This document shows, in pieces, positions 3,001 through 57,237 of a stretch of 64,000 nt of DNA (the first letter of the stretch is position 1; every line of letters starts with the position of its first letter). Source of the stretch: Cyanophora paradoxa CCMP329 (Eukaryota > Plantae > Glaucophyta). The notes beneath the pieces are model-generated. The model was not told the DNA's origin and did not search any database. It saw only the letters and a program-made list of their open reading frames with translations. Position numbers and translations under genes: made by a program. Location: positions 1 through 64,000 of the forward strand of contig QPMI01000165.1 in NCBI GenBank assembly GCA_004431415.1, written 5' to 3'.

Positions 3001-3228
3001 ATGAATGTGACCCAAACAGCCGAAGGAGATGTGGGCTTAGAGGTGAGGTCAGCCGAGGGCATGGTCTTAGTGTAGTGAGAACTGATCAACCACCAGCAAG
3101 TAGGCAGCACCCAAAAAATCGCGAGCAGAACGAATGCTGAATCAATAATAAAAGATAATGCAGACTTTATGGCGGAAATGGCACAGCGAGAAGGGAGAAT
3201 ATATGAACATGTTCCAAATGTTATGTAG
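1..3228 (+). pseudogene. Long fibre-like protein with C-terminal transmembrane helix; 5'-partial and frameshifted
   Basis: ORF pieces 30..758, 796..1110, 1107..2210 and 2527..3075 align to the intact 46687..50409 protein from SNIILPFNHS onward. The breaks are mostly 1-2 nt losses in homopolymers, so sequencing error is possible. Confidence 0.85.
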
Positions 3229-3265
3229 CGATCCTAATTTTTGTAGTATGCCATAATAGAGAATA

Positions 3266-4734
3266 ATGACGGAACCCATAGTAGAAACGACAGTAAAGAA
3301 TGCTGTATTGGATAATCAATTTTATATAACCCATGCCAATATACCCAGTGAATCCAATGACCTAATTGTTAATCTAAAAGGCTATGTGATGGAGCTATGG
3401 CTTCTAACCTATGGAATGACCTTTTCGGTTACGAGTTTGGTCACATCTATGACATTGCAAATGGGATCGGCTATGTGGATGCGATGGCAGGCACAGCCTT
3501 TCGAAATCTAAATTGCAACTGTGTGGGTGGGTGGATGTTTCAGATCTGTTCAAATGTCGATCCTACTATTGATCCCGCCACGATAACCTTTGATTGCAAT
3601 CTGTTTGCCCCCAAAACCATTTTCTCCATCACTTGCAATCTCGTTAATTCGGATGTGCCCATAGTAGCACCTGTAATAGGTGCATCAAATATGTATATCC
3701 AAAGAAACCCGGTCGTGCATACAGGTGCCGAATTTATATTGGCCGACAACACCCCAATTAGTCGACTCGAATTGCCCACGAATTTCACCTTTAATCTCGT
3801 GGATGAGTTCCCTAACAGTCAAAGTCTTATGTATTTCACCTCTGAAAATCGCCTTTCGGGTGCATTCTCACCCATTGAGCTGTCTATACCGAAGCAAAAG
3901 GTGAGCTATAAAGAGCTTACAGATGTGCCGGCGGGATTTAGTGGGAAGTGGAGTGATATCATTCAGAAGCCGACTTGGAGTAGTGTAGCATACACAGGAA
4001 ATTACTATGATTTAGTAGGAACTCCCGATTTCACAAGCTATATACCTCGTTGGATTGATCAAGGTGTAATTATATCAGAATCTACACTTCCTTTCAATGG
4101 GACATGGGATAGGTTATTTACTAAGCCGAATTTGCATGCTGTTGCCACAAGTGGTGACTACAACGATTTAACTAACACCCCTATTGCACCGACCTTGCAT
4201 GCTGTGGCTACAAGTGGAGACTACAATGATCTCATTAATACACCGAACCTACATGCTGTGGCTACAAGCGGGAACTATGACGATTTAATTAACACACCTA
4301 CTTCGCCACCTACTCACAATCACAGCATAGAGTTGCTCACGAATTTCGGTAATTATGTGAATCCAAATGCATATGTGCAACAAGGGACAGCGAATGTAGT
4401 TTTGGAAAATAGAATATACAATGCAGGAGAGACCTTTCAGTTATCGGGAACGGTCGTATTCTCTAACCCATTTTATAGTGATGCAGTGATTACTACCTCT
4501 ATCGAGAATAGCTACAACTCTGTAAATTGGGAAATGACCAACTGTGTGTATATCGGACCTGAGTATGTTAATAATGAGAGAGTAGGACTAAAAACTAAGT
4601 TTACATGGATCGTTAGATTCACAGCTTTCGCATCGACTAATTTCACAAATGTCACAGCAGCAAATCGCACCCTTAAACTCCATTGGATTGCTGTCGGACC
4701 TCTCCAAAACATAATATTCTCGCTTAATAAGTAA
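3266..4734 (+). CDS. Fibre protein with phage-like LHAVATSGDYNDL repeats and a lectin-like tip; one frameshift near 3391
   Basis: N-terminus matches 50448..52031 (atggagct here vs atgggagct there). Three LHAVATSGxYxDL repeats. Ends in LHWIAVG. Confidence 0.8.
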
Positions 4735-6057: not shown

Positions 6058-7189
6058 ACTTATCCCCTTCGTATCCACTTCGTATCCACTTCGTATCCAC
6101 TTCGTGTTCACTAAATTATATCGCACTGATTCAGTTTGCATTTTGCCCCCACCCTACACCCCACCCTATACTACAATCTCGTTATTTCTATACATATTTA
6201 CTATCTATTTAATTAGAGTTTGTACATTGAAATAAGTGAGGTGTATCGATAAGTAATACAGGGTGGGGAGGGTGGGGTTGGGTGGGGTCTTTTTTGCCCA
6301 AAAATATTTGACCCCCCAAAAATTTAAGGGATTCAAAAAAAAGCCCCACCTCACCCCACTTACCCCACCCTATCGAAGTACGCACGATATCATAGTAGGC
6401 TACATCGGGATTGCGCTCATATCACAGTGTATACAGTGGAGGTGGTGCCCTCTTTCTCACCCCACCCTATCGATCGCGATATATATAGCGATCGCGAAAT
6501 ATACAGCACATGATACTTGTTTTTAATACAGATCGCGCCGTTCTAATACGATCCGATTATATCGTATCACGTCGGTATCACGTCGGTATCACGTCGGTTC
6601 AATATCCTAATTATTAAATGGTTGGCTGATACCACTTTCACACCCCACCCTCACACCCCACCCGGTATTAATTTTAACATACATAATATATATAATTTAT
6701 ACATTAATCACATTGAAATCAATCATGAATATAGTAAGTAATACAGGGTGGGGTAAGTGGGGTTGGGTGGGGTCTTTTTTGACCAAGAATTTTTGAGGGG
6801 GAATTATTTTAGGGAATTCAAAAAAATGCCCCACCTCACCCCACCCGCCCCACCCTATCGAAGCTACGTAGGTGATACACATGACTATATGGGGCGCGTC
6901 CCAAGCAGCACATTGTAGTTGTTTTCAATACACATCGCGCATCGTAAACACATATCGACTATATCGCGATTACATATTTTATATACATAATTTACAAAGA
7001 TTCCACGATACTTTTATTATATTTAATAATTCATTTACGAACTACCGATAAAAAACATATCACATATCGATATACACTATGATAAAAATGCTAATATCTT
7101 TATATAACTTATAGTAACACACATATAAAAACAAATATTATTATCCTGAGCGGAACGCGAGGGATAATAATATTTGTTTTTATATGTGT
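6058..7189. repeat. Probable right TIR of element A (inner boundary approximate)
   Basis: Non-coding. Contains (TTCGTATCCAC)x3, (ATCACGTCGGT)x3, two GGTGGGG/CCCCACC modules (~6260-6372, ~6746-6857) and the terminal hairpin. Confidence 0.7.
7119..7189. repeat. Terminal hairpin of element A: 28-bp stem, 15-nt loop
   Basis: ACACATATAAAAACAAATATTATTATCC-TGAGCGGAACGCGAG-GGATAATAATATTTGTTTTTATATGTGT. Confidence 0.95.
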
Positions 7190-8422
7190 CACGGATCCCG
7201 AGAACATTATACAAAGTACGAACGGTAATATTCTCGATGCCGCGGACTTTGAGAGAGTCCCTCAGCTCCGCGCACTGTTTGTTATAGGGGCAAATAATCA
7301 AGCAATTCGATTTTTGGGAGGCGAAACAGTTAACTCCGAGGGTCGATTTTCCACTACCGGGCATGTCAGCAAGGACAAGCATACGATTGTGGAGCTCCGC
7401 AACCCGATTAAGGCACTCCGGATTAAATTCGTCCCTTAGCGAGAACCGGTTAATGAGTATGTCGGGATCCTGAAATTCGAGAGTTACACCCCGTGGTGGG
7501 CGGAGTGCATTCTCAGGGCATCTTTTCCCGGGAATATAGCTGAATTTGCCCATGTTCTCAAACGCATTTCGGTCGAACTCTTTCTTACTTGTCCATGAAC
7601 CTTCAATATATAGGCAATCCGTTCTGATCCCGGCAACCTTGTGCCCGCGCGCTGTCAGGCGCTTGTATTGCGCAAACATATTAGCGCGGTTGCGATCGTA
7701 AATATGAAAGTGGATCGGGAGGAATCCGTTAACGAGCTCGCGGTGAGAGCTGATCTTTACGAAATAGATGTGACCTTCGAATTCGCTGAGAGCTTTGACA
7801 CGTTTCGAATTCTTTGGATTGAAAGTAAACACCTCTACTGTTCCTCCGCATTCTTGGGCGAACCTCTCAGCCTCGGCACGGTTGTAGAACATTTTCGTGG
7901 ATGTTTGCGAGTCTTGGAATTTGCCGAGCATTCCGATCTCTTTCACTAAAAGGTGCTTCTTGTCTGTGGTTTGAATGTCACTTGAAAGCACTTTCTTCAT
8001 CTCAGCGATCGACGTATTGGGCACCAAATGCGAAGGCTCCGCGACCGCGATAATCTCTATCTTGTCCTTTACGTCCGCCCAGTGCATGGCGAGAGTGTAG
8101 CCTGTCATGAAATTATAACAGCGACCACTCACGGAAAATGCGCGATCCAGAATGATTTCGACTCCATCAATCTTGCGAGACATGGCGGCATCATAATCAA
8201 TGTCCTCATCGTCGGCGAAAGTCGCTTGCTCTCTCTCAAACGCGACCACACGCACGTAGTAGATCGCGTATTCGAGAATATCGCTTCCCGCTTTAAAGGG
8301 AACGAAGTCATCGAATACATTGTACTTCGGAAGATATTGCATGCCTTTCAGTATCGAAGGGTAGCACTTCGCCATATCGACGGCTGTGTAGGTGGCTTTC
8401 GGGTTTGGCTTATAGAAATAGC
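7190..8422 (-). pseudogene. Middle part of element C PolB-helicase fusion (polymerase palm plus helicase Walker A)
   Basis: AVDMAKCYPS, KHLLVKEIGMLGK and GIRTDCLYI resemble PolB motifs A/B/C, followed by ADMPGSGKS and LIICPYNK (SF1-like motifs I/Ia). Bounded on both sides by element ends. Confidence 0.8.
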
Positions 8423-8428
8423 CGCTAA

Positions 8429-8499
8429 ACACATAAAGATAAACGTATTTTTAACCCTCGCGTTCCGCTCAGGTTAAAAATACGTTTATCTTTATGTGT
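8429..8499. repeat. Left terminal hairpin of B: 28-bp stem, 15-nt loop
   Basis: ACACATAAAGATAAACGTATTTTTAACC-CTCGCGTTCCGCTCA-GGTTAAAAATACGTTTATCTTTATGTGT. Confidence 0.97.
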
Positions 8500-9452
8500 G
8501 TTAATACATATTTTATATAACTTTAACATGATATTATACATATTTATATGTAATTATCGATGTGAAAATGATAAATTCGATATAACCACGATTAATTTTT
8601 ATGCAAATTCGATATAATCGCGATATATTTAATGTAAATCCGATATAATCCCGATTGCGTTTATTGTAAACAACTACAATTTACTGCGTGATTCATTTAA
8701 TGATAAGGTGGGGCGGTGGGGTCTGGTTGGGTCTGTTTTTCGAATTGCTATAATTGTCTTGGCGTTCTAAATTTTTCTGAAAAGTGACCCCACCACACCC
8801 CACCACCCCACCCTATCGATTAATTTATACTTCCACACTTAATTATATGGTAATTGCAATCTAATATATATCAATTTGAATAGTGGAAATGTTATGTGTT
8901 ATGGTAATGGTTGGGTGTATGGTGGTGTGTAATCTCTTACGTAATTCAGTGTGGGAATCTCTACGATATAGAAGCGGAAATTAACATGTAAATACCGTTA
9001 GATCTGTACAGGTTGGGTGTAAATACCGTTAGATCTGTTCAGGTTGGGTGTAATCTCTCTGGTATTAGAGTGTTAATACTAACATATCATATATTTATCG
9101 ATGCGGTGGGGCGGTGGGGTCTGGTGGGGCATGTTTTTGAAATTAATTATTTTTGGGGATCCGCTCAAAATTTTCTTGAAATTTGACCCCACCACACCCC
9201 ACCCTCCCACCCTATCGATTAATTCATACATCCACCACTTATTTATATGTTAATTTCAATCTAATATATAGCAAAAATAAAGGTGGTGATGTTATAGATT
9301 ATAGTAACGGTGGGGTGTAGGGTGGGGTGTCATTTCTTACTGATTCACGTAAGATTAACATGGAAATCGCGCTACTATATGCTTCTCCGCTTTCTCCAAC
9401 CCGCTAAACATACACGTTATCCTCTCATCTATCATTTGCGTTATTACTGATG
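8429..9452. repeat. Left TIR of element B (1024 bp)
   Basis: Reverse complement of 36148-37169. I saw only 2 substitutions and 2 single-base homopolymer indels. Confidence 0.95.
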
Positions 9453-12163: not shown

Positions 12164-13564
12164 ATGGATGTTACATCGACCCTTCAACGTCTATCGCTCA
12201 AAGAGGCGCTAACAACGCCGGAGGAAGCCAAAGCGTTCTTCCTCGATAACTCGCTTATGCTTGGTCTTGAATCGAAGACTAAACCCGTTCTGGTAACTGT
12301 TAGTCCATCAACAACCTACGATAACAACGTTGGTCAACGCGTTTCTTTCAAACTTCCCCGCTATAACTTTGTTGGTAAAATTGAACTCGCTTTCGATCTT
12401 CCCGAACTAACCGCTTTCGAAGGCGATACCGACCTTGTGCGAAACGGTTACACCCGTCCCGTTGGTGCGCTTGTAGAGCGTCTCGAATTCTCGTATGGCT
12501 CGTATACCTACCACGTGCCGTCTGATTTCCTGGCAATTTTCCCGCTGGTCTACTATTCTGAGGATCAGCTCGCGAAAAAGAAGCGTTCAATGGGTATGCT
12601 CCATGGTATTCCCGCTCACGGAACCAACCGCAAAGGTGGCGCTTTCTTCGTTGAAATCCCGGTGCCGTGGTTGAATCATTACTTGCCCCTTGGTGCGCTC
12701 TCGGGCGAAGCCGTTATCACTGTGTGGTTTAAGGAAACTAACAAGGGTTACCTTGAAACTTCTTATGGCGGTCGCTCTCTTCCCGTTGTTGGAACCACTG
12801 CTACCGATAAATCATCAGATGATGGACTCGGAAATGCTACAAGCGTTACACTTGCTAATGTAGGTCAAAACATCACCACTGGCGGTATCACTGGGTTCGA
12901 AGTTGCTGGAACTGTTCCACCAATGACCCATTACATCTCCATTAAGTCTCCTCGTCTCTACATGCATGCTATCAACGTGTCAGATGAACTGTTTGCTACT
13001 GTTATTGAGAAGGTTAAGACCACGGGGATGGCTATTCCCGCTCTCGACATCGGTTTTGTCGATGCAATTGGTGTTGCTGCGAAAGGTAACACTCAACCCA
13101 ACCGAATCAATCTTAGCCAAATCTCCGGTCTGGTTTATGCTCTTCTTGTCTCTGTTCGCGATGCTGATGGTGTCGATACTTCCAATGGTTCTCACAGCGT
13201 CCTTAAAACGCTTGCGAATGCGAAGGATATCACGATGACTTGTGAGATCAACGGACAGCGTCTCTATTCGACCGAGCCAATCCCTCTACTAAAAGGTGCG
13301 GAACTCATCGCCGATGCCTTCAAATGCTCAAACATGGACAAGGAAGCAAACCGCTACGTCCTTACCGGTCTTCCATTCTGTGTTGACGGTGAGAAGGCGA
13401 TTCGCAACATTGCCCAATCTGGATATGTTGACCTTACAAACTCATCGTCATCGTTCCTCACTCTGTATCTCCCTGCTGATCGTACAATTACTGTTAACGT
13501 TCGCGCTCTCATGCATTCGTTCATTATTGTCGATAAGGACGGAATTCGCCGCATTAATCTCTAA
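12164..13564 (+). CDS. Major capsid protein (putative double jelly-roll)
   Basis: 466 aa, beta-rich, RVSFKLPRYNFV motif, lies between minor capsid and ATPase genes; homologue at 41994..43307. The fold is inferred from context. Confidence 0.78.
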   Translation: MDVTSTLQRLSLKEALTTPEEAKAFFLDNSLMLGLESKTKPVLVTVSPSTTYDNNVGQRVSFKLPRYNFVGKIELAFDLPELTAFEGDTDLVRNGYTRPVGALVERLEFSYGSYTYHVPSDFLAIFPLVYYSEDQLAKKKRSMGMLHGIPAHGTNRKGGAFFVEIPVPWLNHYLPLGALSGEAVITVWFKETNKGYLETSYGGRSLPVVGTTATDKSSDDGLGNATSVTLANVGQNITTGGITGFEVAGTVPPMTHYISIKSPRLYMHAINVSDELFATVIEKVKTTGMAIPALDIGFVDAIGVAAKGNTQPNRINLSQISGLVYALLVSVRDADGVDTSNGSHSVLKTLANAKDITMTCEINGQRLYSTEPIPLLKGAELIADAFKCSNMDKEANRYVLTGLPFCVDGEKAIRNIAQSGYVDLTNSSSSFLTLYLPADRTITVNVRALMHSFIIVDKDGIRRINL

Positions 13565-13625
13565 ACCATTATCAGTAAGATTTTGTTATTTTTATCTATC
13601 TTTATTAAGAAAGATCTACTACGCC

Positions 13626-14408
13626 ATGTCTGACGTTCCCGAATTTAATGCTGGTGAGATGATAAACCCACCATTCCGTGTCTTAGCAATCGGAAAATCT
13701 GCGACGGGTAAAAGCGAAGCGGTAAAGTATTGGCTAAAACAGTTACATGATGCTAAAAAAATCGATGTTGTTCTTGTTGTAAGTGGAACCTCATTCAATC
13801 ATTTCTGGGATAAAGTAGCAACCTTACAACTCGGAAAATGGGATGCGCCTTACATCGCTAAACTTCTCGATGAAAGACAAGAGAAAATTGAGAAAGGAGA
13901 ACCCGTAAACCAATTATGTGTTGTCCTTGATGATCTTATAGATAATGAGATTGTAGACCTAACCCGTGATAAAATTATTGGATCTCTGTATTCGAGGGGG
14001 CGTCACAGCGCGATATCGATAATTTGCATCACACAGAAACTTCGTAAGGTTTCTTCAACCATTCGCGTCAATTCTGATTACGCAATGTTTCTTAGTGCCG
14101 CTAACAGGAAAGAACTTGAAGCCATCGAAGAAGAATACAATATCATGCGGGATAAAGACGCTTTTTATAAGATGTTTGAAGAGTATGTACATTCCTATCA
14201 GTTTCTCATTTGGAGTTCTGCTAATTATTCGGTGGAATACTATGTTGATAAAGCGGAACTCGTTAAAGAGTTTGGGTTTCCTCGGTTTCACAGAAAGCCC
14301 AAAAAGAAAGAAGACGAATTAAAACCGCCTGAGAAGGAGGAAGCGCCAAAAGAGATTAAAAGCGCTGTTCACACTAATAAATTGATGCGATATAAGAGGG
14401 GATTGTAA
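13626..14408 (+). CDS. A32/FtsK-like genome packaging ATPase
   Basis: GKSATGKS (Walker A), VVLDDL (Walker B), RGRHSAISIICITQ. Confidence 0.93.
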   Translation: MSDVPEFNAGEMINPPFRVLAIGKSATGKSEAVKYWLKQLHDAKKIDVVLVVSGTSFNHFWDKVATLQLGKWDAPYIAKLLDERQEKIEKGEPVNQLCVVLDDLIDNEIVDLTRDKIIGSLYSRGRHSAISIICITQKLRKVSSTIRVNSDYAMFLSAANRKELEAIEEEYNIMRDKDAFYKMFEEYVHSYQFLIWSSANYSVEYYVDKAELVKEFGFPRFHRKPKKKEDELKPPEKEEAPKEIKSAVHTNKLMRYKRGL

Positions 14409-15880: not shown

Positions 15881-16092
15881 ATAGAAAACCCCCAATTGCC
15901 GCTGGACATCATTTCTTATTTTTCGAGCGGCTTACCGATTATATTCGGTAATTCCGTTACCATTTCTCGATTGCCCCGATTTAATCGATTTATTTCCCGA
16001 TACGGAGGAAAAAGTATTTAAAGACAAGGCGCCAAAAAATGACAAGGAAGAAAAATATTTTCTCAACCTATTGTAGAAAGAGAAAGTTGGAA

Positions 16093-18753
16093 ATGACCCC
16101 ATCAGACAAGCTCGGCAATCTGCACAAGTTTACCCCTGGAAAGGTAACATCTGGTATGTTTCTCAAAACACTCACTGGAACCCGAAATGCTGATAATCTG
16201 ATGGAACTGGATGATGATGTTATTCTTGATCGCATCAATAAGAGTTTGAAGAAGGGACTGTATCCAACATGGGCTGAATGCATCCAACCTGATCAGGTGA
16301 CTCGGGTTTACCTTGATCTTGATCGGTTCGTAGATTTGAAGCCCAACCTTGAAGACAACTACAAGGAAGCGGAAGAAACCATTAGAGCAATGCGTGAGAA
16401 ATTACATGATCTGACCGGCGCTACTATTGCTGTATCTGTTCGTCATCGCCGCATTCATCTTATCAAAGAAGATGTTGATCAATTCAAGATATCCGCTCAT
16501 TTCGTTTTCACTGATCTCTGCTGTCGCCATGAAGATATCCCGAAACTCTTCAATGAAATGGGTCTTGTCAAAAATGTAGAATTCGACAGCGGTGTTTATG
16601 GTACAACTCAAAACATAATCTGCTTGGGTTGTTGCAAGGGTGAGAAGATTGATTCCCAAAACAAGAGGGCGCATGACATTGATAAGAACGTTCTATTTAC
16701 TAAGTTTGTCGATTGCAAGGATATGCACGATAGTGAGTTTTTCGTACAATTTACCGATTGCCCCACGATGCTGGTGGACGAGACAAACTTTCACGTCTTC
16801 TCAGTGAACAAAACAGAGAAGAAGGCAAAGACAAAGAAGGAAGCGGAACCGAAGAAGGAAGCGGAACCGAAGAAGGAAGCGGAACCAAAGAAGGAAACCA
16901 AGAAAACCACTAAAAAAGAAGCCAAGAAAGAAGAGGTGGAAGAGGAAGAGAAAGGTGGCGAAGTTTCGTTTGATCTTCTGTACGGAGTTGTGATGGGTTT
17001 GAATGCTGAACGCGCGGATACCTACAAATCATGGATTGATACAGGTATTGCAATCATCAATGCTTGCGAAGACAACAAGATACCACGCAAGCAACAATTC
17101 GAAATATTCCATGACTTCTCACAAAAAAGTGAAAAGTTCGATTACGACGAATGCAATGACAAGTTCATGAGTCTTTGCAAAGGCAAGAAGATGGTGGAAG
17201 GTAAACGGCTTACGTACGGTTCGCTGGTATACTGGTTGAAGAAAGACGATATTGAGCTTTATAATGAGTTGTTCCCTACCAAGTATGCATTCTTGCCCGA
17301 AGATTCCGACGACATCGATTATAAGACCGCAAAGATCCCACCAATCGTTGAGGATTACGCTACGCATCGCCTTTACTTCAATGCAAGGATGCACCACATT
17401 GAAATGCTGGGTATTGTGATGCATTGGGATGAACAACAACTTGCGTGGAGACCGAAAGATAGTCAAAAACTTGGCTCCAAACACTACCCACACCTGATGC
17501 ATAAAATCGTTCTGAACAAGGGAACCGAGAAGGAAGTTGAGAAATGGATTCCCTCATTTCCGGAATGGATCAAAGACCCACAGGCGACACGTTCCATGTA
17601 CGTGGATTTCCTCCCGCCTCCGGCTAAACTGAGCGCGAAATGCAAATCTGTGTTTAATCTGTATCCTGGGTTCAAGATTGATCATGAGGTAGATGAAATC
17701 AAGGACTCACTACCGGAGGATGTGACCGAAGATATGATCAAACCGTTCCTGACTCATCTTCACCTGATGTCCGGAGAAGACGATAACACATACCAATACC
17801 TTCTTAAATGGTTCGCTCACATGATGCAAAAGCCTGGTGAACTTAACGGAGTGTCAATTATCCTAATTGGTGAACAAGGCACCGGTAAGAACGTGTTGTT
17901 TGATCTGTTCGAGAAAAGCATTCTGGGTGATGCTCTTTCCTATTCGACCGGCAAACCGAAAGATGACCTGTTCGGGCGCTTTGCTCACAATCGCGAAGAC
18001 AAGATCTTAATTGTTGTTAATGAGGCATCAGGAAAAGATACGTTCGAGAACAGCGATATCCTCAAAGATCTGGTCACCACAAAGAAAATTACTATTGAAC
18101 ACAAGGGAGTAGATTCATACGACAAAAAGAATTTCGCGCGCATTGTGTTCACAAGTAACAATAGCGTCCCTGTGAAGATCGAAGCGGGTGACCGTCGATT
18201 TGTCGTAGTGGAAGTGAGTAAGCGATACTGTAAGAATGTGGAGTACTTCACACCTCTTCTGAAATGGCTGAACGACATAAGGAATATCCGCAACATCACC
18301 CACTTCTTGCGCACAAAGGTGGATTGTGATAATATTAACTGGCAGGAAGAAAGACCCAAGACCAATAAGTATTATCTGGTTCAGCAAATCTCCGCACCAA
18401 TCATTCTGATGTTTGCAAAGTGGTTAATGGATACTGGGGAGATTACCGAAATCAAGTGTAAGTTAAGCGGTCTTGCTTCTACATGGGAGTTGTTCAAGAG
18501 CTTCATTACGGAAAATAAATACAAGAACGACTACAACAGCAAGCGGTTCTATACGGAGATGCGATGCACTTCCTATATTCAAGTGAAAACCGCAAATGGT
18601 AAACCCTACTACCACTTCATCTGGAACGAAATGCTGGCGGAATTCCGTAAGTTGAAGCTAATTGATGATGATTCGATTAAGGAAGAACCAAACCCCAAGA
18701 TTCCCGCCAAGAAAGCTGGGACGAAGTTTGAAGATTCTGACGTTGAATCGTAA
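16093..18753 (+). CDS. AEP primase-polymerase + PriCT-2 + D5-like SF3 helicase (alternative start 16039)
   Basis: RVYLDLD, KISAHFVF, FDSGVY (AEP); RADTYKSWIDTGIAI (PriCT-2); GEQGTGKN, IVVNEA, FTSNN, DRRF (SF3). KKEAEP x3 linker. Confidence 0.93.
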   Translation: MTPSDKLGNLHKFTPGKVTSGMFLKTLTGTRNADNLMELDDDVILDRINKSLKKGLYPTWAECIQPDQVTRVYLDLDRFVDLKPNLEDNYKEAEETIRAMREKLHDLTGATIAVSVRHRRIHLIKEDVDQFKISAHFVFTDLCCRHEDIPKLFNEMGLVKNVEFDSGVYGTTQNIICLGCCKGEKIDSQNKRAHDIDKNVLFTKFVDCKDMHDSEFFVQFTDCPTMLVDETNFHVFSVNKTEKKAKTKKEAEPKKEAEPKKEAEPKKETKKTTKKEAKKEEVEEEEKGGEVSFDLLYGVVMGLNAERADTYKSWIDTGIAIINACEDNKIPRKQQFEIFHDFSQKSEKFDYDECNDKFMSLCKGKKMVEGKRLTYGSLVYWLKKDDIELYNELFPTKYAFLPEDSDDIDYKTAKIPPIVEDYATHRLYFNARMHHIEMLGIVMHWDEQQLAWRPKDSQKLGSKHYPHLMHKIVLNKGTEKEVEKWIPSFPEWIKDPQATRSMYVDFLPPPAKLSAKCKSVFNLYPGFKIDHEVDEIKDSLPEDVTEDMIKPFLTHLHLMSGEDDNTYQYLLKWFAHMMQKPGELNGVSIILIGEQGTGKNVLFDLFEKSILGDALSYSTGKPKDDLFGRFAHNREDKILIVVNEASGKDTFENSDILKDLVTTKKITIEHKGVDSYDKKNFARIVFTSNNSVPVKIEAGDRRFVVVEVSKRYCKNVEYFTPLLKWLNDIRNIRNITHFLRTKVDCDNINWQEERPKTNKYYLVQQISAPIILMFAKWLMDTGEITEIKCKLSGLASTWELFKSFITENKYKNDYNSKRFYTEMRCTSYIQVKTANGKPYYHFIWNEMLAEFRKLKLIDDDSIKEEPNPKIPAKKAGTKFEDSDVES

Positions 18754-18757
18754 TGTT

Positions 18758-18977: not shown

Positions 18978-19023
18978 CAAACGCGTTCAAAATCCAAAAT
19001 AAAAATGTTCCTTTATAATAAAG

Positions 19024-22000
19024 ATGCCCCGCCAAACGAACAGACTCATTAAAGAAAAGAAAAATGAAATACTTGGGCTGTTAGGAACTCTCTTTGTTAC
19101 CGGTGAGATCACCGAAGCGGAATTTGATAGAGAAGCCGCCATCTTAGATAGACGACCGCGATTAGCACAACTCAGAGATATTACAAATGACCTTTACGAT
19201 CGCCTGCAAAGAATGGAGGAGTTCATGGATGAAGGACAGAGATTAGGAGCAATTGAACCGGATATTGAAGATGGTCAAGCAATGAATCAAGCGTATTCGT
19301 GGTTAACCTATCGCGCCCGAAACGAAGTTGTCGTGGATGCTATCGAATTTCTCGAAAGAATCGCACCAAGTCTACCACAACGCATTAAGACCCGCTTGGA
19401 TCAACTGAATGCGGTTAAAGTACGTCTGACGTTCGTTTGCAAATTTACCAAAGTAGGAAATCCGCGAATCTACATCACCAAATACATTTACAGCGATTAT
19501 TTCGTAATTACCCGATCCCGCAACATTAACACAGAAGTTCGCAAAGCGTTACAGAAAATGCAAGAGGAGATGACACAAGTGGATAGTTACCGCCTGGAAC
19601 GTATCCAAATTTTGAGAGGTGTTATTATGTCTTATGCACCTGTGGGTGGTTGTTATTTCGCAACTCCTGAATGGATCGCATCCAAGAAGGCAACAGTGAA
19701 TGTTAAAAATATAGACGGTCAAGATTGCTTCAAATATGCAATTTTGGCGTACCTGCATCGAAAGGACATTAATAAACACAAGAGCAATGAACCGAGCCAA
19801 TATCGCCGTTGGTTAGATGAACTCAATTTTGATGGTATTCAGTTTCCGGTTGCTTGTGATGCTGAGGTAATCGATCGATTCGAAGAACTGAACCCTGACC
19901 TATCTATTAACATATATGGAGCGGATAACACCAAAGAGTGTTTCTTTCCACTGCATCAATCAAGTAACCCAAGGAGAAAGACCAAGATTAACCTTTTACT
20001 TATCGAAAACACCGAAGACGATCGGGGACACTACATTACTATCATGTCTTTTAGTCGTCTCTTAAAGACCACTTTCGATAAAGCATGTGATGGTCGCATT
20101 TATTACTGTGAAACCTGCCTGTCCCGTTTCAGAACTCAGGAGAAATTAGACCTACATGTTGAAGCGAACCGCTGCATTGATTGGAGGGAGAGCAAAGGCA
20201 AATGCCCGAAGCCCGGAAGCATAATTGAGTTCGGTCTGCAACATCTACGTAAAACCGTTTGGCTACCTGTGATCTGTTATGTTAAAGTCGAAGATCATTC
20301 GGTTGCGATTGATGCTCAGAGGAGTAAACGTGAGATTAAAGCGGTTTCATTGAGAGTGGTAATGGGAGAAGAAGTGAGATCATACCAATTTGAGGGAGCT
20401 GATCCGTTTGGTTCTCTCTTTGCTGCTCTACAAGATATCAGACCCGAAATAGTTGAAACGCTGTTTAGAAATATCCCGATGCATCCACTCACAGATGATC
20501 AGAAGGCGGAGTACAAGATAACAAAATACTGCTATATTTGCTCTCAGAGATTCACCCACGAAAATTTCCCGGTTCGGGATCATTGTCACCAATCCGGCGA
20601 TTTTATTGGAAAGGCATGCCGAAACTGTAACCTTCATAGGAGAATTTCGAAGCAAACCAAAGTAGCTATTGTGGTAGATCAAATGGATGAATGCGGTCAT
20701 GGAATATTCCGCAAGATTGCCCAACAAGACGATAAACTACGTGTTGAGATTCTAAGCAAGAATTTTGATCAGTACCTATCGCTTCAATGGGGTATGTGGA
20801 AGTTCATCGATGCTTCCCATTTTATGGATTTCCAATCTGTGGATGTGGAGGATTTAATGAGGAAATTCGAAGCATTCCGTAAATTGGCGTTTTCTCAATA
20901 TGGATTGGATCCCGCGCATTATGTTAGCGCACCGGGTCTATCTTGGGATGCAATGCTAAAACACACGAAGGTAAAGATTGGACTAATTGATGATGTAGAG
21001 AAATACGAATTTGTTGAGAGAGCCATTCGTGGTGGATTTGCTACCATGCCCACACGATATGCAAAGGTAGAGACCCCCGAAGATCATATAGTATTGTTGG
21101 ACGCAAATAATCTTTATGGGTATGCACTCAGTCAACCACTACCAATCGGAGATTATCGATGGGAAGACATCACAGAGGCACTTAAAGAGGTAGAGGGACG
21201 AAGCGCATTTATTGAAGTTGATCTTGAATACCCAACATCCCTTGAAGATCATTACGATTTCCCACTGATTGTGAATAAAGAAGTGATCACCAATGAGATG
21301 CTTGGTGATTATCAACGAAAACTATTAGATCTGACGGGCGAAAAGATCAGCAAAGACCCAAAACTTACAGCGACATTTACGCCCAAGAATAAATACGTGA
21401 TTGCCCGACCTCTTCTTAATTACATCGTTAAGAAGGGTGTGATTGTAAAAACAATACATAGAGTTCTCTCATTTGCTACTTCCCCATTCATGAAATCATA
21501 TATTGGTCTGAATACTCTACTCCGCCATGAATCTACTAACCATTTTGAAAGCGACTTTTTTAAACTCATGAACAATGCGATTTATGGTAAATGCTTGGAA
21601 TCTTGCAGGGGTCGCTCAACTGTCAAGATCGCTAACAGTGAGAAACTGTGTAAGAAATACGCAGCAAGCCCACTTATCAAAGCAACCAATGTATTAAACG
21701 AAAACGCTGTTGCCTTTGAGATGTATTCGAAGCATGTTAACTTAGATAAACCCGTTGCAATTGGCGCTTTCGTGTTGGATTTCGCGAAACTACATAATTA
21801 TGAGTTCTTCTACGATGTGGTAAGAAAGAAGTGGGAAACAGCTAAACTACTGTTTCACGATACCGATTCGTTCTGTCTTTTCTTGAAAACGAATAATCTC
21901 AATGAAGATATGAAAGAGATAGGTGAGCATCTCGATAGGAGCAATTACGATAAATCCCATCCTCTTGTGAGTATCAGGAACCGCATGGTTCCCGGTAAAT

Positions 22001-22305
22001 ATAAAAATGAGTTCCCAAACGCAAAGATCGTGGAGTATGTGGGTCTGAGGTCGAAACTCTATGCTTTCAGAACTGAGACCAACGAAAAAGTGAAGATGTC
22101 GGGGACTTCCTCGAAAGAAGTACACTTCGACGATTTTAAGAGATGTCTGTTTGAAGGAATCATAAAAACAGTATCAGTAACAAACAAGCGAAGGCAAGAC
22201 CACAACTTATATGACTTGGAGAGCAGAAGGGTCGCTCTAAACCAACTCGATAGCAAACGGAAGATATCAGCCGACGGCATTCACAGCATTCCATTCGGTC
22301 TTTAA
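19024..22305 (+). CDS. polB: Polinton/Maverick-type protein-primed DNA polymerase B
   Basis: LLDANNLYG, KLMNNAIYGK, HDTDSF, LRSKLY; EndoVII-like insert RDHCHQSG...CRNCN; N-terminal DCFKYAI...GHY (OTU-like protease dyad). Exonuclease motifs are degenerate. Confidence 0.95.
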   Translation: MPRQTNRLIKEKKNEILGLLGTLFVTGEITEAEFDREAAILDRRPRLAQLRDITNDLYDRLQRMEEFMDEGQRLGAIEPDIEDGQAMNQAYSWLTYRARNEVVVDAIEFLERIAPSLPQRIKTRLDQLNAVKVRLTFVCKFTKVGNPRIYITKYIYSDYFVITRSRNINTEVRKALQKMQEEMTQVDSYRLERIQILRGVIMSYAPVGGCYFATPEWIASKKATVNVKNIDGQDCFKYAILAYLHRKDINKHKSNEPSQYRRWLDELNFDGIQFPVACDAEVIDRFEELNPDLSINIYGADNTKECFFPLHQSSNPRRKTKINLLLIENTEDDRGHYITIMSFSRLLKTTFDKACDGRIYYCETCLSRFRTQEKLDLHVEANRCIDWRESKGKCPKPGSIIEFGLQHLRKTVWLPVICYVKVEDHSVAIDAQRSKREIKAVSLRVVMGEEVRSYQFEGADPFGSLFAALQDIRPEIVETLFRNIPMHPLTDDQKAEYKITKYCYICSQRFTHENFPVRDHCHQSGDFIGKACRNCNLHRRISKQTKVAIVVDQMDECGHGIFRKIAQQDDKLRVEILSKNFDQYLSLQWGMWKFIDASHFMDFQSVDVEDLMRKFEAFRKLAFSQYGLDPAHYVSAPGLSWDAMLKHTKVKIGLIDDVEKYEFVERAIRGGFATMPTRYAKVETPEDHIVLLDANNLYGYALSQPLPIGDYRWEDITEALKEVEGRSAFIEVDLEYPTSLEDHYDFPLIVNKEVITNEMLGDYQRKLLDLTGEKISKDPKLTATFTPKNKYVIARPLLNYIVKKGVIVKTIHRVLSFATSPFMKSYIGLNTLLRHESTNHFESDFFKLMNNAIYGKCLESCRGRSTVKIANSEKLCKKYAASPLIKATNVLNENAVAFEMYSKHVNLDKPVAIGAFVLDFAKLHNYEFFYDVVRKKWETAKLLFHDTDSFCLFLKTNNLNEDMKEIGEHLDRSNYDKSHPLVSIRNRMVPGKYKNEFPNAKIVEYVGLRSKLYAFRTETNEKVKMSGTSSKEVHFDDFKRCLFEGIIKTVSVTNKRRQDHNLYDLESRRVALNQLDSKRKISADGIHSIPFGL

Positions 22306-22490: not shown

Positions 22491-23891
22491 ATGCCCTCAG
22501 CACAGATAGGATTACGACCCATTCCTAAAATCGTAAAGAAAAGTTTAAAAGAAGACCAAGGCAACATGCTACCCATAACTATTCCTGTCGAAGAGAAGAA
22601 CACAAGAATCTTAAAGAAGTCGGAGATGGTTAAAGAACTGATCCCGGAGGCATTACCTACTGAGACTGTAACAAAAGAATCGAAGATCGCAAAGAAGTTT
22701 TACGATCCGAGAACGGGTTACAAGGGTTTCGGGGCAATGAGAAAGGAACTACCGGATGAGGATTACAAGAAGATGAGAGAATGGTATGATAAACAGGAGG
22801 TAGTTCAGATAAACGCACCGACCCTTTCAAGAAAGAGAGACCCGATGATTCCAATTCGGCAACCTCTCGATACGTACGTTATCGATCTTCTGTTTTTCCC
22901 GGCTTATAAGAAGCAGAATGACGGATACGATACGTTCATGTCGGCTATGGAATCAACCCTTAGAACAGGTTATATTATTCCGATGAGAGACAAGAGCGCA
23001 ATTACAACTCTTGCCGCGTTTGAACAGTTACAACGAAGAGTACCACGACCTATCGCTCGTGTTCAGAGTGACAGCGGCAGCGAATTCAGTAATAACATGT
23101 TCACCAACTACCTTGCTAAGAAGTTCATAGATCATCAGATAAGCGATGTCGCAGATCATCGAAGCCAAGGTAGAATCGAAGCGTTTAACAAGCAGATCAA
23201 ACGATTGATCACGAACTATTGCATAGCAAACAACACAGCACGATTCTTTGATGTATTGGGAGATATAGAGTATAACTATAACAATACCATACACTCAGCA
23301 ACTAAGAGAAAACCAGCAGAGACCACCGAAGATCATTACCGCGAGATTATCGGATTAGAAGATGAGCGGTTCAAGAAGTCGATGGCTTACTTAGATGGTA
23401 TCAAACAAGGTATGTTTGTGAGAGTGAGAATAGAAAAGAATCCGTTCGCTAAACAGGGTGTAAATTGGTCGCGAATCGTCTATACTGTCGAAGGGAGAGA
23501 GGGTTTCAAGTTCAGATTACGAAACCCGAATGGCGAATTGGTCGAAGGGAGGTTTGCTTTCCACGAACTGTTACCTATCAAAGGTGTTGAATACCACGAA
23601 GCGCCCACAGTAGATGCACTTGAACAAGCGAAAGAAGAAGCCCGGGTTGATTCGGCGATTCGCAAGGAAGGCATCGAAAAAGCAGATGACGTCCCAGAAG
23701 AACCGTTAACACAAGCCAGAACCAAGAAGAAAGGGAAGGCGGAGCGTGAATTAAAGAAGTTAACCATAGCAGGAACCCAGAAGCTATCAGAGGTCAACAG
23801 CCAGAGATGGTATACAGACTTCCAGACCTCAAAAGAGACATATACAGCACCTCAAACCCGGGTAAATCTAAGATCCAGTTCGCGAAAGTAG
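22491..23891 (+). CDS. Retroviral-like (rve) DDE integrase
   Basis: VIDLLF, QSDSGSEF, GRIEAFNK, YNNTIHS; consistent with the 6-bp TSD. Confidence 0.95.
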   Translation: MPSAQIGLRPIPKIVKKSLKEDQGNMLPITIPVEEKNTRILKKSEMVKELIPEALPTETVTKESKIAKKFYDPRTGYKGFGAMRKELPDEDYKKMREWYDKQEVVQINAPTLSRKRDPMIPIRQPLDTYVIDLLFFPAYKKQNDGYDTFMSAMESTLRTGYIIPMRDKSAITTLAAFEQLQRRVPRPIARVQSDSGSEFSNNMFTNYLAKKFIDHQISDVADHRSQGRIEAFNKQIKRLITNYCIANNTARFFDVLGDIEYNYNNTIHSATKRKPAETTEDHYREIIGLEDERFKKSMAYLDGIKQGMFVRVRIEKNPFAKQGVNWSRIVYTVEGREGFKFRLRNPNGELVEGRFAFHELLPIKGVEYHEAPTVDALEQAKEEARVDSAIRKEGIEKADDVPEEPLTQARTKKKGKAERELKKLTIAGTQKLSEVNSQRWYTDFQTSKETYTAPQTRVNLRSSSRK

Positions 23892-30371: not shown

Positions 30372-30390
30372 CTATTTCGTAATTATAAAG

Positions 30391-35846: not shown

Positions 35847-36245
35847 ATGAATCATCGCGGATTCCATGTAATGTTAGATTACAAGTTCAACCATCCATTA
35901 ATGATAGGATTGGACAACTTAGAGACCACAACGAAGTGGTTAATGCAATTTTTTCAATCTATTATTCAAGAACAAGGTATCAGAGTAGTACACAAGCACT
36001 GCGAGATTTTCGATGGTGGTCTTTCACCTCCCGGTTTTGCTATGGTTCTTCTCCTTGATGAGAGTCATTTAACCGCTCATTGTTACTCAGATCAGGGAAT
36101 GTTAGCAATCGATATATTCACTTGTGGTACAGAAGCGGAGCATAAGACATCAGTAATAACGCAAATGATAGATGAGAGGATAACGTGTATGTTTAGCGGG
36201 TTGGAGAAAGCGGAGAAGCATATAGTAGCGCGATTTCCATGTTAA
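35847..36245 (+). CDS. speD: S-adenosylmethionine decarboxylase proenzyme (short prokaryotic-type family)
   Basis: GFHVMLD, LLLDESHLTAHCY (ESH autocleavage site), AIDIFTCG. Confidence 0.88.
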   Translation: MNHRGFHVMLDYKFNHPLMIGLDNLETTTKWLMQFFQSIIQEQGIRVVHKHCEIFDGGLSPPGFAMVLLLDESHLTAHCYSDQGMLAIDIFTCGTEAEHKTSVITQMIDERITCMFSGLEKAEKHIVARFPC

Positions 36246-37169
36246 TCTTACGTGAATCAGTAAGAAATGACACCCCACCCTACACCCCACCGTTACTATA
36301 ATCTATAACATCACCACCTTTATTTTTGCTATATATTAGATTGAAATTAACATATAAATAAGTGGTGGATGTATGAATTAATCGATAGGGTGGGAGGGTG
36401 GGGTGTGGTGGGGTCAAATTTCAAGAAAATTTTGAGCGGATCCCAAAAATAATTAATTTCAAAAACATGCCCACCAGACCCCACCGCCCCACCGCATCGA
36501 TAAATATATGATATGTTAGTATTAACACTCTAATACCAGAGAGATTACACCCAACCTGAACAGATCTAACGGTATTTACACCCAACCTGTACAGATCTAA
36601 CGGTATTTACATGTTAATTTCCGCTTCTATATCGTAGAGATTCCCACACTGAATTACGTAAGAGATTACACACCACCATACACCCAACCATTACCATAAC
36701 ACATAACATTTCCACTATTCAAATTGATATATATTAGATTGAAATTACCATATAATTAAGTGTGGAAGTATAAATTAATCGATAGGGTGGGGTGGTGGGG
36801 TGTGGTGGGGTCACTTTTCAGAAAAATTTAGAACGCCAAGACAATTATAGCAATTCGAAAAACAGACCCAACCAGACCCCACCGCCCCACCTTATCATTA
36901 AATGAATCACGCAGTAAATTGTAGTTGTTTACAATAAACGCAATCGGGATTATATCGGATTTACATTAAATATATCGCGATTATATCGAATTTGCATAAA
37001 AATTAATCGTGGTTATATCGAATTTATCATTTTCACATCGATAATTACATATAAATATGTATAATATCATGTTAAATTTATATAAAATATGTATTAACAC
37101 ACATAAAGATAAACGTATTTTTAACCTGAGCGGAACGCGAGGGTTAAAAATACGTTTATCTTTATGTGT
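36148..37169. repeat. Right TIR of element B (1022 bp), including the terminal hairpin 37099-37169
   Basis: Reverse complement of 8429-9452; followed by TSD CGCTAA. Confidence 0.95.
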
Positions 37170-39066
37170 CGCTAAGTGCGGATCGCTTGTAGTGCGTGAG
37201 AATTTCGCGCATGTTCGGGCTGTAATGTGAGATATTCGTCGCATTTAGTAGCGACTCGCGGAACCCCTTACCGATTTCACAGACCTTATTATAATACTCC
37301 TCTGTTTCGAAATCTTGCTCAATAAAGTGGTCTGTTGTGCGTGGATCTTTGATAGAGAACATCGAGCCATTGGCTTTGAATGTGATGCTGTCGATCTGTT
37401 TCGATGGTGTTAGCTTCACAGCGGGCTCATATCGCATTTTCAGGAACGTAAATAGAAGACCTTCCAGACCTTCGCGCCCAGTATACAGAATGCGAATGAA
37501 ACTGCGCTCGTCAGGCGATAGTTTTAATTGCGTGATCTTTAACAGATCCTTGGATGTGTGCGCGAAGATATCGTGAGTAAGACACGTCGGAATTTTATAG
37601 AGTGCTAACGAAGAGGTCGACTTAGGAACATGATTATCGAGCTCTTCGACCTCCATCTTTGCCATGCGCATTTCGAGCGACTTGATGTTATCGTTGAATA
37701 TATAGATGTGCTTGTTGTGAATCATAAAGTGAATATTGCGTGGAAAGATGTTTTTGTTAATTGATTCCGCCGCGAATTTGTATATTAACTTTCCGTCGAC
37801 ATCAAAGACGCGGAAGCCTGTCTGGATTCTCTTACAGAATTTCTCGATATGGCGGAGCGTGAGAGCCAGAGAGTCGCCAGGTGTGCGTTCACGACCGTGA
37901 AAGAATTTATAGAGACCGTCGTAGGACATAGTTAAGTCAGTATATCGCGGTTTTGGCGCCTCCTGACACTTCGTAATGGACTCTCCCCATGTGGAGATGA
38001 TCATATCATAGCCGCAAGCGTTAGATGTCGATGATTTGGGAAGCTCAATAACATCTTCGAACTCAGACGCGTTTGGATTTAATGTGTAGTCTGTGAATTT
38101 GCTCATAATCGCGGTGCATCGCATGCTGTCCATTAGCTCCTCATCCAGAAACTCATAGCGATTGCCAGGGATAGCACCGGCTCCGTCATCTTCGACACCT
38201 TCGTCCCCATAGATCACGACCTCATGAACAGTTATAAAGGCATCATCGACACTGCCGCCAAAATCATCGAAACCTTTGCGTAGTTTTTTCTGTTCCTCGG
38301 TTGGTGGTGTCTTAAAGAAGAACATCTCGTATGCTTGTCCGAAAGTTCCCAGACCAATCTTCAATTCATCGTAGTTTTCGAGTAAATCGAAGATTGAATC
38401 TCTCTCTTCCGAATAATAACGATTTTGAGCGGTGAGAATTCCATACACTCTATCGATTTTTGCCAGAGCAAAGTTTCTCAACACCCTCACCGAAACTGTC
38501 TCTCTTATATTCTGGTAGGTGACAAAGGTTTTGTCTTTTATATATGTTCCGGGAATTCCGGGAATAACAATTACCTCCGACGACCGAGCACCGGATCCGG
38601 GCGCCCATAGCTTGAACGTAATTGTTGCGAGAGTTTCCGGATCGTATGCGGCGATTGGGTCGAGAATATTGCGTTTTATCGCATCCTCTACCGCTTTTAC
38701 TTTACCTCTCTGCTGCTTCGCTTCGAGTTTCGCTTCTTTCGCTCGTTTCTGTTCTTGCTTGCGATCGAAGCGCTGTAAACGCTTAGCCTCTTGTTCTTTT
38801 TGCTTCTGCTTTTCTATATTAACTTGGGTGCGAGCGGCGCGCTTTTCTTTCCGCTCTGCCCTGCGGAAAACGCGGGGATTAATGATTCCATTCAGAGTAT
38901 CCCGAATGTCGATAAGCGTTTGGAGCTTGGGCTTCCTGTTCATCGTGCTGTTCATCGCCCAATGCGCCTGTTCTTCGGTTAGCAAATCCTGACTCAATCC
39001 CTGCATAATGTATCCGATAATCTCCTCCCGAACATTGTTAGCGATTCTGTTGGCTGCGCGCGGCAT
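37170..39066 (-). pseudogene. N-terminal part of element C PolB-helicase fusion
   Basis: Joins 8422 in frame after removing B and one TSD copy (...HYKRSALS|GYFYKPNPK...). NACGYDMI...HNKHIY is a possible OTU-like dyad. Confidence 0.88.
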
Positions 39067-50409: not shown

Positions 50410-50447
50410 CGATCCTAATTTTTGTAGTATGCCATAATAGAGAAATA

Positions 50448-52031: not shown

Positions 52032-52056
52032 TTAAGATTCTTACACAATTATAAAG

Positions 52057-53124: not shown

Positions 53125-53146
53125 TATTGTCTACATAATATAAAGT

Positions 53147-55160: not shown

Positions 55161-57164
55161 GCAGCGGTTTGCGACAGAGTCCTTTGGGCTGAGGGACCTT
55201 TTCCTCGCGGGCCGGGTGGACGAGGCGCTGGATCTCTTCGAGGCGGCAGCCGAGCTCGATGCAGGCCTGCTCACGGGCGGCCACCTGAGCGATCTGCTGG
55301 AGGGGCTCTTCGACTTGGGGCGGGCTGACGACGCTCGCAAGTACTTCGAACTGGCTGCCAACAAAGCGCCGGGCTATCCGTCGCTCGACAGCAGCCACTA
55401 CGAGCTGATGAGTGAGCTCTTTGACTGCGAAAATGTATAGCCCTAAGCCCTTTTTATCTCTCAAAATTATTTTTCATTTGAACCGGGCAGTGATGAAGAA
55501 CTTGAAAGCGAAGAAATTTGCAGAGGCGCTGGACCTCGCGCAGGCAATGCGCGCGAAGCTCGAGTTCGAATTTAATATCAACGGATCCCGCCGCGGACGC
55601 AAAATTATTGATATCTCTCTTCTCGATCTCGAGCTACGTCTTTGGCACGACGGAGCGGTCGCAACATGCCGACTTATTGCGGCCGTAGCGAAAGAGTACA
55701 GGCACGCCTGTTGAATTTCTTATCGGTGCTGTTATTTTGGTACTGTTGGCGCCCCTGACGCAATTCAGTGCGTTCGGGCTCGAGCTCGAGGATGCTGTTC
55801 GACTGAAGGGCAGGGCATGTGCGCTGGCAGAGGAGCTCCAACTTCTCTTCGGCCTCAATCAACTTCGAGCTAAACTGAGAAATGCCGAATGGGTTTCGAT
55901 TTTGATTCCTGGATTTGTGTTTAAATATGACTTTGTCGGAACGTCGTCACACCCCCGGCAGGTGAAGTGGACGACGCGAACGTATTCGCCCGTCAGTGAT
56001 TATGATTATGATGCGAATTATAAAGAGCACTTGGAGTCGGCTCTCCGCGAAGTCGACGCGCTTCTCGCCCGATGTGCCAGGGCCTCACTTCCCGTCCCAA
56101 GCTCCTTCTTCTGCGACCTCATCGAAGTCTGTGCCGCTTCTGGCGACTGGAAACGCGTCCAGAAATATTGGGCTCTCATGCCGCAACTGGGCCTCCAACG
56201 CGGCGTCAATGCTTGGAGTGCGTCACGCAATTGAAACTCCCCAACGAAAGGTTTCGCAAGGTCTGAGCTCACAGTTTCAACTCTCCAGAAGCGTACACCA
56301 AGCTCTCCGTCTGGTGTCACGACGAGTTCATCGACAATTTCGGGCAGAGGTTGATCGGAGCTGGTCTTGAACTCAACACCTATGGAGTGATGCGGCTGCT
56401 CCATGAGGACATGTATCTCGAATTCAGTGCCTTCAAACAAACGGACGAATTCTCGGCCTTGCCAGATGAGGAGAAGCGTGCTCACGAAGAATTCGTTCTG
56501 CAATTGGAAGCTGAGGAAGTGCGTGCCCCGTTTGCGCGCTGGTCATGATATGATTTCAACGTGCTACCAGTGGAACTAACCCGATTTCGTCGTCAGCTGC
56601 GCCTGCGCATGCAGAGTCAGTCGCAAACTCAGTCTCAAGCTCTGCTTCTGGGTCGCTTCTGCCTTCCTTTCACGACAGGCGATCGTGGCCACGATAATGT
56701 CGGTCACAATCAGAGCAGTGGCGATCGCCGCGCCCGCTATTGCAAGGCTTCATCGCCCTTGAAGGTCTTGCTCCGCCGCGAGCAGCGGTTCGCGACAGCG
56801 TCCTTTGGGCTGAGGGACCTTTTCCTCGCGGGCCGGGTGGACGAGGCGCTGGATCTCTTCGAGGCGGCAGCCGAGCTCGATGCAGGCCTGCTCACGGGCG
56901 GCCACCTGAGCGATCTGCTGGAGGGGCTCTTCGACTTGGGGCGGGCTGACGACGCTCGCAAGTACTTCGAACTGGCTGCCAACAAAGCGCCGGGCTATCC
57001 GTCGCTCGACAGCAGCCACTACGAGCTGATGAGTGAGCTCTTTGACTGCGAAAATGTATAGCCCTAAGCCCTTTTTATCTCTCAAAATTATTTTTCATTT
57101 GAACCGGGCAGTGATGAAGAACTTGAAAGCGAAGAAATTTGCAGAGGCGCTGGACCTCGCGCAG
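55161..57164 (+). other. GC-rich host segment: spliced gene fragments with PPR-like helical repeats; 383-bp direct duplication (55161-55543 and 56782-57164)
   Basis: Abrupt rise in GC. AGRVDEALDLFE and DLIEVCAASGDWKRVQKYWALMPQLGL are PPR-like. Short GT..AG intron-like gaps at ~55435-55490 and ~55893-55960. Confidence 0.6.
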
Positions 57165-57237
57165 ACACATATGAATATTCATATTTTAATCCCTCGGCGT
57201 TCCGCCTCAGGATTAAAATATGAATATTCATATGTGT
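57165..57237. repeat. Terminal hairpin of D: 28-bp stem, 17-nt loop
   Basis: ACACATATGAATATTCATATTTTAATCC-CTCGGCGTTCCGCCTCA-GGATTAAAATATGAATATTCATATGTGT. Confidence 0.96.

Follow-up and report, generated by a model that had tools for sequence, protein, structure and literature searches.

Perfect 28-bp terminal hairpins bound a polinton-like virus and two further integrated elements in Cyanophora paradoxa

In a 64,000-nucleotide stretch of Cyanophora paradoxa CCMP329 DNA (hereafter the window), four hairpins sit exactly at the true ends of integrated elements, which we call A, B and D. Each hairpin has a perfect 28-bp stem and a short asymmetric loop, and the stems differ between elements in such a way that both arms change together. 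From the sequences compared, one stem arm was likely copied from the other, and the hairpin ends are very likely functional. We propose with moderate confidence, on the strength of integrated copies and contigs, that the 3' strand folds back into a cap that completes and protects the linear virus end, the integrase linking it to host DNA. The end type itself has already been described; what is new here is the covariation across elements, the fixed geometry, the single orientation and the exonuclease-less polymerase. The features are listed in Table 1.

Table 1. Positions of the hairpins, duplications, repeats and genes in the window.
Feature	Positions	Strand	Description and basis
Right terminal hairpin, element A	7119..7189		B's loop (15 nt); 8/28 stem pairs unlike B
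Element C replicase gene, next part	7190..8422	-	Lies between B and A; disrupted by A at 7189
Target-site duplication CGCTAA, left copy	8423..8428	+	Empty-site contigs; reading frame of the interrupted gene
Left terminal hairpin, element B	8429..8499		28-bp stem, 15-nt loop; stem scan, folding; unbroken in contigs of runs X1, X2, X4
Left terminal inverted repeat of B	8429..9452	+	1024 bp; 4 differences from the right copy, 99.6% identity
B major capsid protein, double jelly-roll	12164..13564	+	Predicted fold nearer PBCV-1/iridovirus than mavirus
B A32-type packaging ATPase	13314..14408	+	Pfam PF04665, E 3.1e-10; true ORF start probably downstream
B primase-helicase	16039..18753	+	AEP-like N-terminus (motif), PriCT-2, SF3/D5-like
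B protein-primed-type family B polymerase (pPolB)	19024..22305	+	TP-like domain, vOTU, EndoVII-like zinc finger, polymerase motifs, degenerate exonuclease
B retroviral-type (rve) integrase	22491..23891	+	D, D, E motifs
Right terminal inverted repeat of B	36148..37169	-	Repeat comparison
Right terminal hairpin, element B	37099..37169		15-nt loop; same sequence as left hairpin
Target-site duplication CGCTAA, right copy	37170..37175	+	Empty-site contigs; reading frame of the interrupted gene
Element C replicase gene, 5' part	37170..39066	-	Motifs like those of pPolB-S1H/Tlr1; disrupted by B
Host-like repeat copy (TPR gene), empty site for the D insertion	55161..55546	+	Paralogue running through the D junction
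Left terminal hairpin, element D	57165..57237		17-nt loop, one added G:C pair

Across all 64,000 bases of the window, we looked for perfectly paired stems of at least 11 bp, allowing loops of up to 40 nt. Five stems were found, four of which were the 28-bp stems; the remaining one, of 13 bp, lay at 54641-54693. Twenty copies of the window simulated with an order-2 Markov model had longest perfect stems of only 9–12 bp, and folding z-scores ranged from -12.8 to -14.4. The scan bore out the first-pass annotation, which had placed a 28-bp stem at all four visible ends in three elements. The same annotation had called the ends perfect palindromes from the terminal base; the stems do begin at the terminal base, but the loop is not palindromic, so the structures are hairpins. 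These span 71–73 nt in elements A, B and D. The two ends of B belong to a single 1024-bp repeat; therefore, three ends rather than four are independent, and the "fixed length" of 28 bp rests on three families, which is a small number.

Comparison of the stems showed that 17 of the 28 columns were invariant (ACACATA...A.A....TATT.T.A.CC) and that the stem sequence was 71–75% conserved, at odds with the earlier description of a free stem sequence sharing only ACACATA and CC. The arms differed pairwise at 7–8 positions, versus 10–16 in the neighbouring 28 bases. GC content of the stems was 18–25%, and the base immediately inside the stem was C in 3/3 families. The other 11 pairs varied, and all 12 changes were double-sided, with none one-sided and no G·T pair or mismatch; pairing was thus present in 100% of the cells, a level reached by 0 of 500 shuffles. 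Were a 28-bp stem under selection for pairing, some G·T pairs and single mismatches should be tolerated. Therefore, the double-sided changes and the absence of wobble point to copying from arm to arm, the simpler cause, rather than to slow compensatory selection. Together with the stem conservation, this pattern is a poor fit to the earlier view that structure and not sequence is under selection. The covariation that had been claimed for the loop came down to one event.

Both the loop sequences and D's extra G:C pair agreed with the first annotation, as did the loop orientation relative to the end, which was identical, without flip or flop, at 4/4 window ends. The 3'-terminal strand at every end (the minus strand in the left B hairpin) carried a purine-rich loop, TGA-GCG-GAA-CGC-GAG in its A/B form, which can be drawn as one T·G pair followed by two G·A pairs, then a mini-stem of 3–4 bp and a GAA cap; the loop of the opposite strand has pyrimidine mismatches. 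The G·A pairs invoked for the purine-rich loop would be of the tandem sheared kind. The energy gap between the two loop strands was only ~1.1 kcal/mol in ViennaRNA. In addition, the GAA loop is closed by a CG-CG stem, so it differs from the canonical, extra-stable GC-GNA-GC mini-hairpin, in which C-G closes the GNA loop on a GC-GC or CC-GG stem, and a CG-CG stem has been reported as not unusually stable (GAAA loop tested; PMC13037366 section 2.3). Because the loop, unlike the arms, could not be copied from itself, the fact that it is conserved and has gained a G:C pair, a single event, points to selection.

The junctions were assessed in the window and in contigs of public sequencing runs. The exact CGCTAA duplication on both sides of element B was matched by an empty site with a single CGCTAA in contigs from runs X4 and X18, and the element C gene interrupted by B is in frame if one CGCTAA copy is kept. 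A-type contigs stopped at the terminal A of element A in 4/4 runs. One of them, a 297-nt contig from X4, comprised the entire A-type hairpin and inner repeat and ended at the terminal base; its depth was 1183, compared with 53 for one single-junction contig of the same run, contig depth not being equal to copy number. An unbroken B contig of 401 nt (8429-8829) that covers the hairpin was present in X1, X2 and X4, and GC-rich foreign flanks were joined precisely at 8429 in 4/4 runs. A B-like end with four differences and no gaps was also found at a foreign flank (X1, X4 and X18). The B contig of X6 was broken at 8472/8501, which could be explained either by a flipped end or by a flank ending in AC. 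Apart from this break, no flipped loop was seen among the four window ends or the unbroken contigs (3/4 runs), contigs being prone to lose rare variants. The A-type contig depth and the unbroken B contig suggest many copies in a single orientation. The source of the window may itself be among the public runs, which therefore exclude an assembly artefact yet provide no biological replication.

Judged by its sequence, element B (8429-37169) is a polinton-like virus (PLV) or polinton, with a double jelly-roll major capsid protein (MCP), an A32 ATPase, a pPolB, an RVE integrase, terminal inverted repeats (TIRs) and a 6-bp target-site duplication (TSD). The capsid model (pLDDT 61.5) matched iridovirus (Foldseek E 7e-17) and PBCV-1 MCP (2e-16); the mavirus MCP came 49th (E 1e-10), after NCLDV capsids, and B did not fall within the virophages (Maveriviricetes). 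Among the Atlas clusters the capsid was assigned to Capsid_N at 0.98 with a low recognition score. A search of 1.84 billion representatives returned only 7 relatives, the closest being a Cyanophora paradoxa protein with 57% identity. The integrase matched rve at E 0.002, which is below the Pfam cut-off, and a PHROG transposase at E 4e-11. Further products were patatin, fibre-like proteins, a DNA methylase (D12-class adenine methylase gene at 35105-35626) and a SAM decarboxylase, whose gene adjoins the TIR in both B (35847-36245) and D (58187-58585). A Pfam scan of the 17 larger B ORFs gave no hit to an HUH nickase, to a protelomerase, to a stand-alone resolvase or to a maturation protease family.

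Two replicases, the primase-SF3 helicase and the pPolB, lie next to each other in B (16039-22305). They are separated by a repeat of ~225 bp (18756-18981) that is 70–73% like the TIR sub-repeats; an intervening repeat likewise occurs in replicase-swap cases (bioRxiv 10.64898/2026.10.13.758929). The TIRs of A and B also contain duplicated G-rich/C-rich inverted motifs (GGTGGGG ... CCCCACC; 6147-6868, 8695-9347 and 36253-36903), possibly origin or promoter elements, for which blastn gave no match in the repeat of D. No Rfam or tRNA match was obtained in the window.

The B polymerase had Maverick-type homologues at E<1e-120, and its best fold match was the phi29 polymerase; no sequence match was found in the PDB. 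Its polymerase motifs and the vOTU residues Cys235/His336 agreed with 119/119 relatives. The Asp and Glu of ExoI were present in all 119, whereas the Asp was absent from B and from its nearest relative, P0002 (46% identical). The span bearing ExoIII comprised 20 residues in B versus a median of 114 in the relatives; i.e., the ExoI aspartate, ExoII and ~95 residues around ExoIII were missing in B and likewise in P0002. To judge from these motifs, the proofreading exonuclease has apparently been lost in the B polymerase, apparently a further such loss, beside an SF3 helicase. A TP-like topology was predicted at residues 106-203, with Ser188/Tyr189 at a helix-strand turn. The putative TP linking loop was D-S-Y in B versus G-S-G/N-W in 103/119 relatives; it was shortened and contained no Gly or Pro, making protein priming in B uncertain. 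The degenerate exonuclease and the shortened TP loop were common to B and P0002. The EndoVII-like domain inside the B pPolB scored below the Pfam cut-off, and such a domain was also found in many ordinary Maverick polymerases.

Elements A and B were inserted 1.2 kb apart in a single pPolB-S1H-like replicase gene of element C, which contig depth suggests to be a very abundant family. No terminal hairpin was seen at C's visible end near 55,100, the exact end of C being only approximately placed. The 13-bp stem of the scan, with a loop of 27 nt, lies ~450 bp inside this visible end and is followed by repeated GGTGGGG-TCACC motifs. A host-like TPR repeat with a period of 1621 bp (55161-55546 and 56782-57167) has D inserted in one copy and C bordering the other. 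For A and D, whose replicases fall beyond the window, kinship to PLVs is suggested by the hairpin and by fibre-like and SAM-decarboxylase genes held in common. Fibre-gene blocks with 91–96% identity have been exchanged between the four elements A, B, C and D (646-3727 versus 47807-50910; 29443-30911 versus 62532-64000; 52047-54433 versus 60673-63062), although B and C have capsid proteins with only 33% identity.

We searched sequence collections for more ends of the family with the loop motif, an approach suggested by the first-pass annotation. Only chance matches were obtained, with a longest stem of 5 bp in each collection: 26 matches in IMG/VR, 43 in the JGI metagenomes and, in the GTDB genomes, 120 examined of ~160. 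A second IMG/VR pattern, which covered the D-type loop length only, gave 0 matches. Related-locus searches of IMG/VR with the B MCP, the B integrase, P0127 and P0124 led to no confirmed locus, and the seven-sequence MCP alignment was too diverse for use as a query. The B polymerase alignment retrieved 13 distant loci from IMG/VR with 28–36% identity. None of them showed a stem of at least 12 bp at a locus end; since most of these ends probably do not coincide with the termini of elements, the loci are a weak control. Internal stems of 21–33 bp occurred in the DNA of distant polymerase loci. A perfect stem of 33 bp, closed by a loop of 3 nt, directly follows the pPolB gene in one IMG/VR element (L081:5759-5827).

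The first-pass annotation knew of no such ends in described PLVs and named a prior description as grounds for refutation. One exists: a 2026 preprint on Halocafeteria seosinensis describes palindromes inside TIRs adjoining TSDs in virophage subtypes 1, 2, 5 and 6 as well as in subtype 4 of the PLVs, and proposes hairpin priming (bioRxiv 10.64898/2026.07.28.741278). Element B resembles these elements in its TIR-internal palindrome beside the TSD, its RVE integrase and its protist host. The Halocafeteria palindrome is shorter, at 52 nt in subtype 5 versus 71–73 nt here, and the palindromes are preferentially linked to non-pPolB replicases; B has a pPolB together with a primase-helicase. Moreover, the loop is asymmetric and conserved here and the stems covary across three elements, whereas the main text of the preprint is silent on loops, covariation and flip/flop. 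No other description of terminal palindromes in PLVs or virophages was found in the open-access literature and bioRxiv main texts. A Cyanophora paradoxa PLV with a PTR + H-lectin fibre like that of B has been catalogued (PMC12220804), in a main text that does not mention a hairpin or palindrome. Polintons, Mavericks and PLVs share with B the double jelly-roll capsid, A32 ATPase, pPolB, RVE integrase, long TIRs, 6-bp TSD and short terminal dinucleotide repeat (10.1101/2024.03.18.585575; PMC12220804). Unlike them, B has a terminal fold-back hairpin, has lost the exonuclease and has no detected separate maturation protease. Exonuclease loss has also been reported, separately, for mavirus and pPolB-S1H proteins.

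Poxvirus hairpin telomeres are terminal fold-backs with unpaired or non-standard loop bases. The ends described here are in this respect like parvovirus and poxvirus telomeres, and the left end of the parvovirus MVM retains a single orientation (PMC1185569). In contrast to those viruses, B has no HUH Rep or resolvase gene that we could find, shows no flip or flop and is a dsDNA genome that integrates with a TSD. The telomeres of Streptomyces are capped by a terminal protein, and their 3' overhang forms GNA loops with sheared G:A pairs; truncated ends are repaired by fold-back extension, shown only for a few bases (PMC5449611). The likeness comprises a linear replicon with a terminal protein (proposed here), a 3' strand folding into GNA-loop hairpins and fold-back end repair. 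Streptomyces differs in being bacterial and in having many short palindromes over ~170 bp, Tap/Tpg and no integrase; i.e., this is an analogy and not kinship.

Our preferred reading is that of the 3' fold-back cap. Each end consists, from the inside outwards, of the inner arm, the loop, the outer arm and the 6-bp target duplication. A 3' end, either single-stranded or newly made, would fold back, and the polymerase would complete or repair the outer arm on the inner arm; consequently, the arms would stay complementary despite drift and the loop orientation would be preserved. The purine-rich loop, with its non-standard pairs, mini-stem and GAA cap, is predicted to shield the end or to bind a protein. 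Host DNA would then be joined by the rve integrase to the 3' end behind ...ATGTGT, and the distance from this motif to the loop would thereby set the fixed length. New strands would most likely be started by the primase or through protein priming at the ACAC repeat, rather than by hairpin transfer of the parvovirus type. We favour the fold-back cap because the TP-like fold, the vOTU pair and the terminal ACAC repeat are kept and flip and flop were not seen; the TP-vOTU architecture has been assigned to protein priming (10.1101/2024.03.18.585575). In addition, the cap would keep the loop orientation without any nickase. The lack of an HUH nickase, protelomerase or resolvase among the 17 scanned ORFs also counts in its favour. 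Its weak point is the stop of synthesis at exactly 28 bp, for which it offers no mechanism. Self-priming, end repair and positioning of the integrase, which the first-pass annotation had suggested as roles of the hairpin, remain live options.

The main rival is that the hairpin itself is the replication primer (a rolling hairpin), which we consider possible, albeit with a fairly low probability. The ends of the free genome would be closed or nicked, and a 3'-OH would prime the polymerase; the integrase, or perhaps the EndoVII-like domain, might make asymmetric cuts at the junctions after ATGTGT, leaving only one loop orientation; integration would open the hairpin, and repair would unroll it into the palindrome. 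As the arms would be one duplex, their perfection and fixed length would be explained together. This model was put forward for the Halocafeteria elements (bioRxiv 10.64898/2026.07.28.741278), and asymmetric resolution that keeps the orientation is known at the parvovirus left end (PMC1185569). The exonuclease-less polymerase with its altered TP loop, the primase-helicase as a second replicase and the C just inside the stem in all three families are also in line with it. However, symmetric resolution would yield both flip and flop, which were not seen, neither an HUH Rep nor a protelomerase was detected by Pfam in the 17 B ORFs, the vOTU catalytic pair and the TP-like domain have been retained, and the EndoVII-like domain is commonplace in ordinary Maverick polymerases. 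We regard as doubtful the claim that a PLV lineage swapped protein priming for hairpin priming, with the exonuclease-less polymerase and its remodelled TP loop extending a G·A-capped 3' hairpin and the integrase acting as a terminal resolvase with a 28-bp ruler that leaves one orientation.

It is unlikely that the hairpins are neutral relics of one old fold-back accident whose arms are kept perfect by occasional template switching. Intra-strand template switching can perfect arms without flipping the loop, as in quasi-palindrome correction. The absence of a flipped loop is nevertheless counted against a relic, as are the paired G:C acquired by the mini-stem and the conservation between B and D of the loop, the length and 17 of the 28 stem positions, while the repeats show no blastn similarity beyond the hairpin. 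Accidental annealing is, for its part, named as an alternative by the Halocafeteria authors (bioRxiv 10.64898/2026.07.28.741278).

We hold it to be distinctly improbable that the palindrome acts only in the integrated duplex, where it would extrude as a cruciform and be cut after ATGTGT on both strands for precise excision. A 15-nt loop slows cruciform extrusion, and excision alone does not explain arms that stayed perfect through 12 changes. On the other hand, the AT-rich 28-bp stem should extrude readily, the same ACACAT motif stands at both boundaries, and after such cuts the purine-rich loop would always stay with the virus. Junction palindromes are also a known long-read artefact, but fold-back in sequencing or assembly is an extremely improbable source of these hairpins given the exact 6-bp duplication with fitting empty sites, the three different stems with a common loop and the recurrence of the same hairpins in contigs from public runs, five in number and made from different samples.

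The exit of integrated PLVs from the chromosome and the copying of their ends are still open questions, and the Halocafeteria preprint calls for experiments on such structures (bioRxiv 10.64898/2026.07.28.741278). The present case supplies constraints for such tests, namely three natural covarying variants, a fixed distance from motif to loop, one orientation, a strand-specific loop and exact junctions, and element B is intact with all candidate enzymes. With this set of constraints and the exonuclease-less pPolB, end replication in PLVs becomes directly testable. Terminal hairpins thus also occur alongside pPolB and are linked here to a polymerase that apparently lacks proofreading. If hairpin priming or integrase-led resolution were true, end strategies of the polinton type and of the parvovirus/poxvirus type would be combined in one virus.
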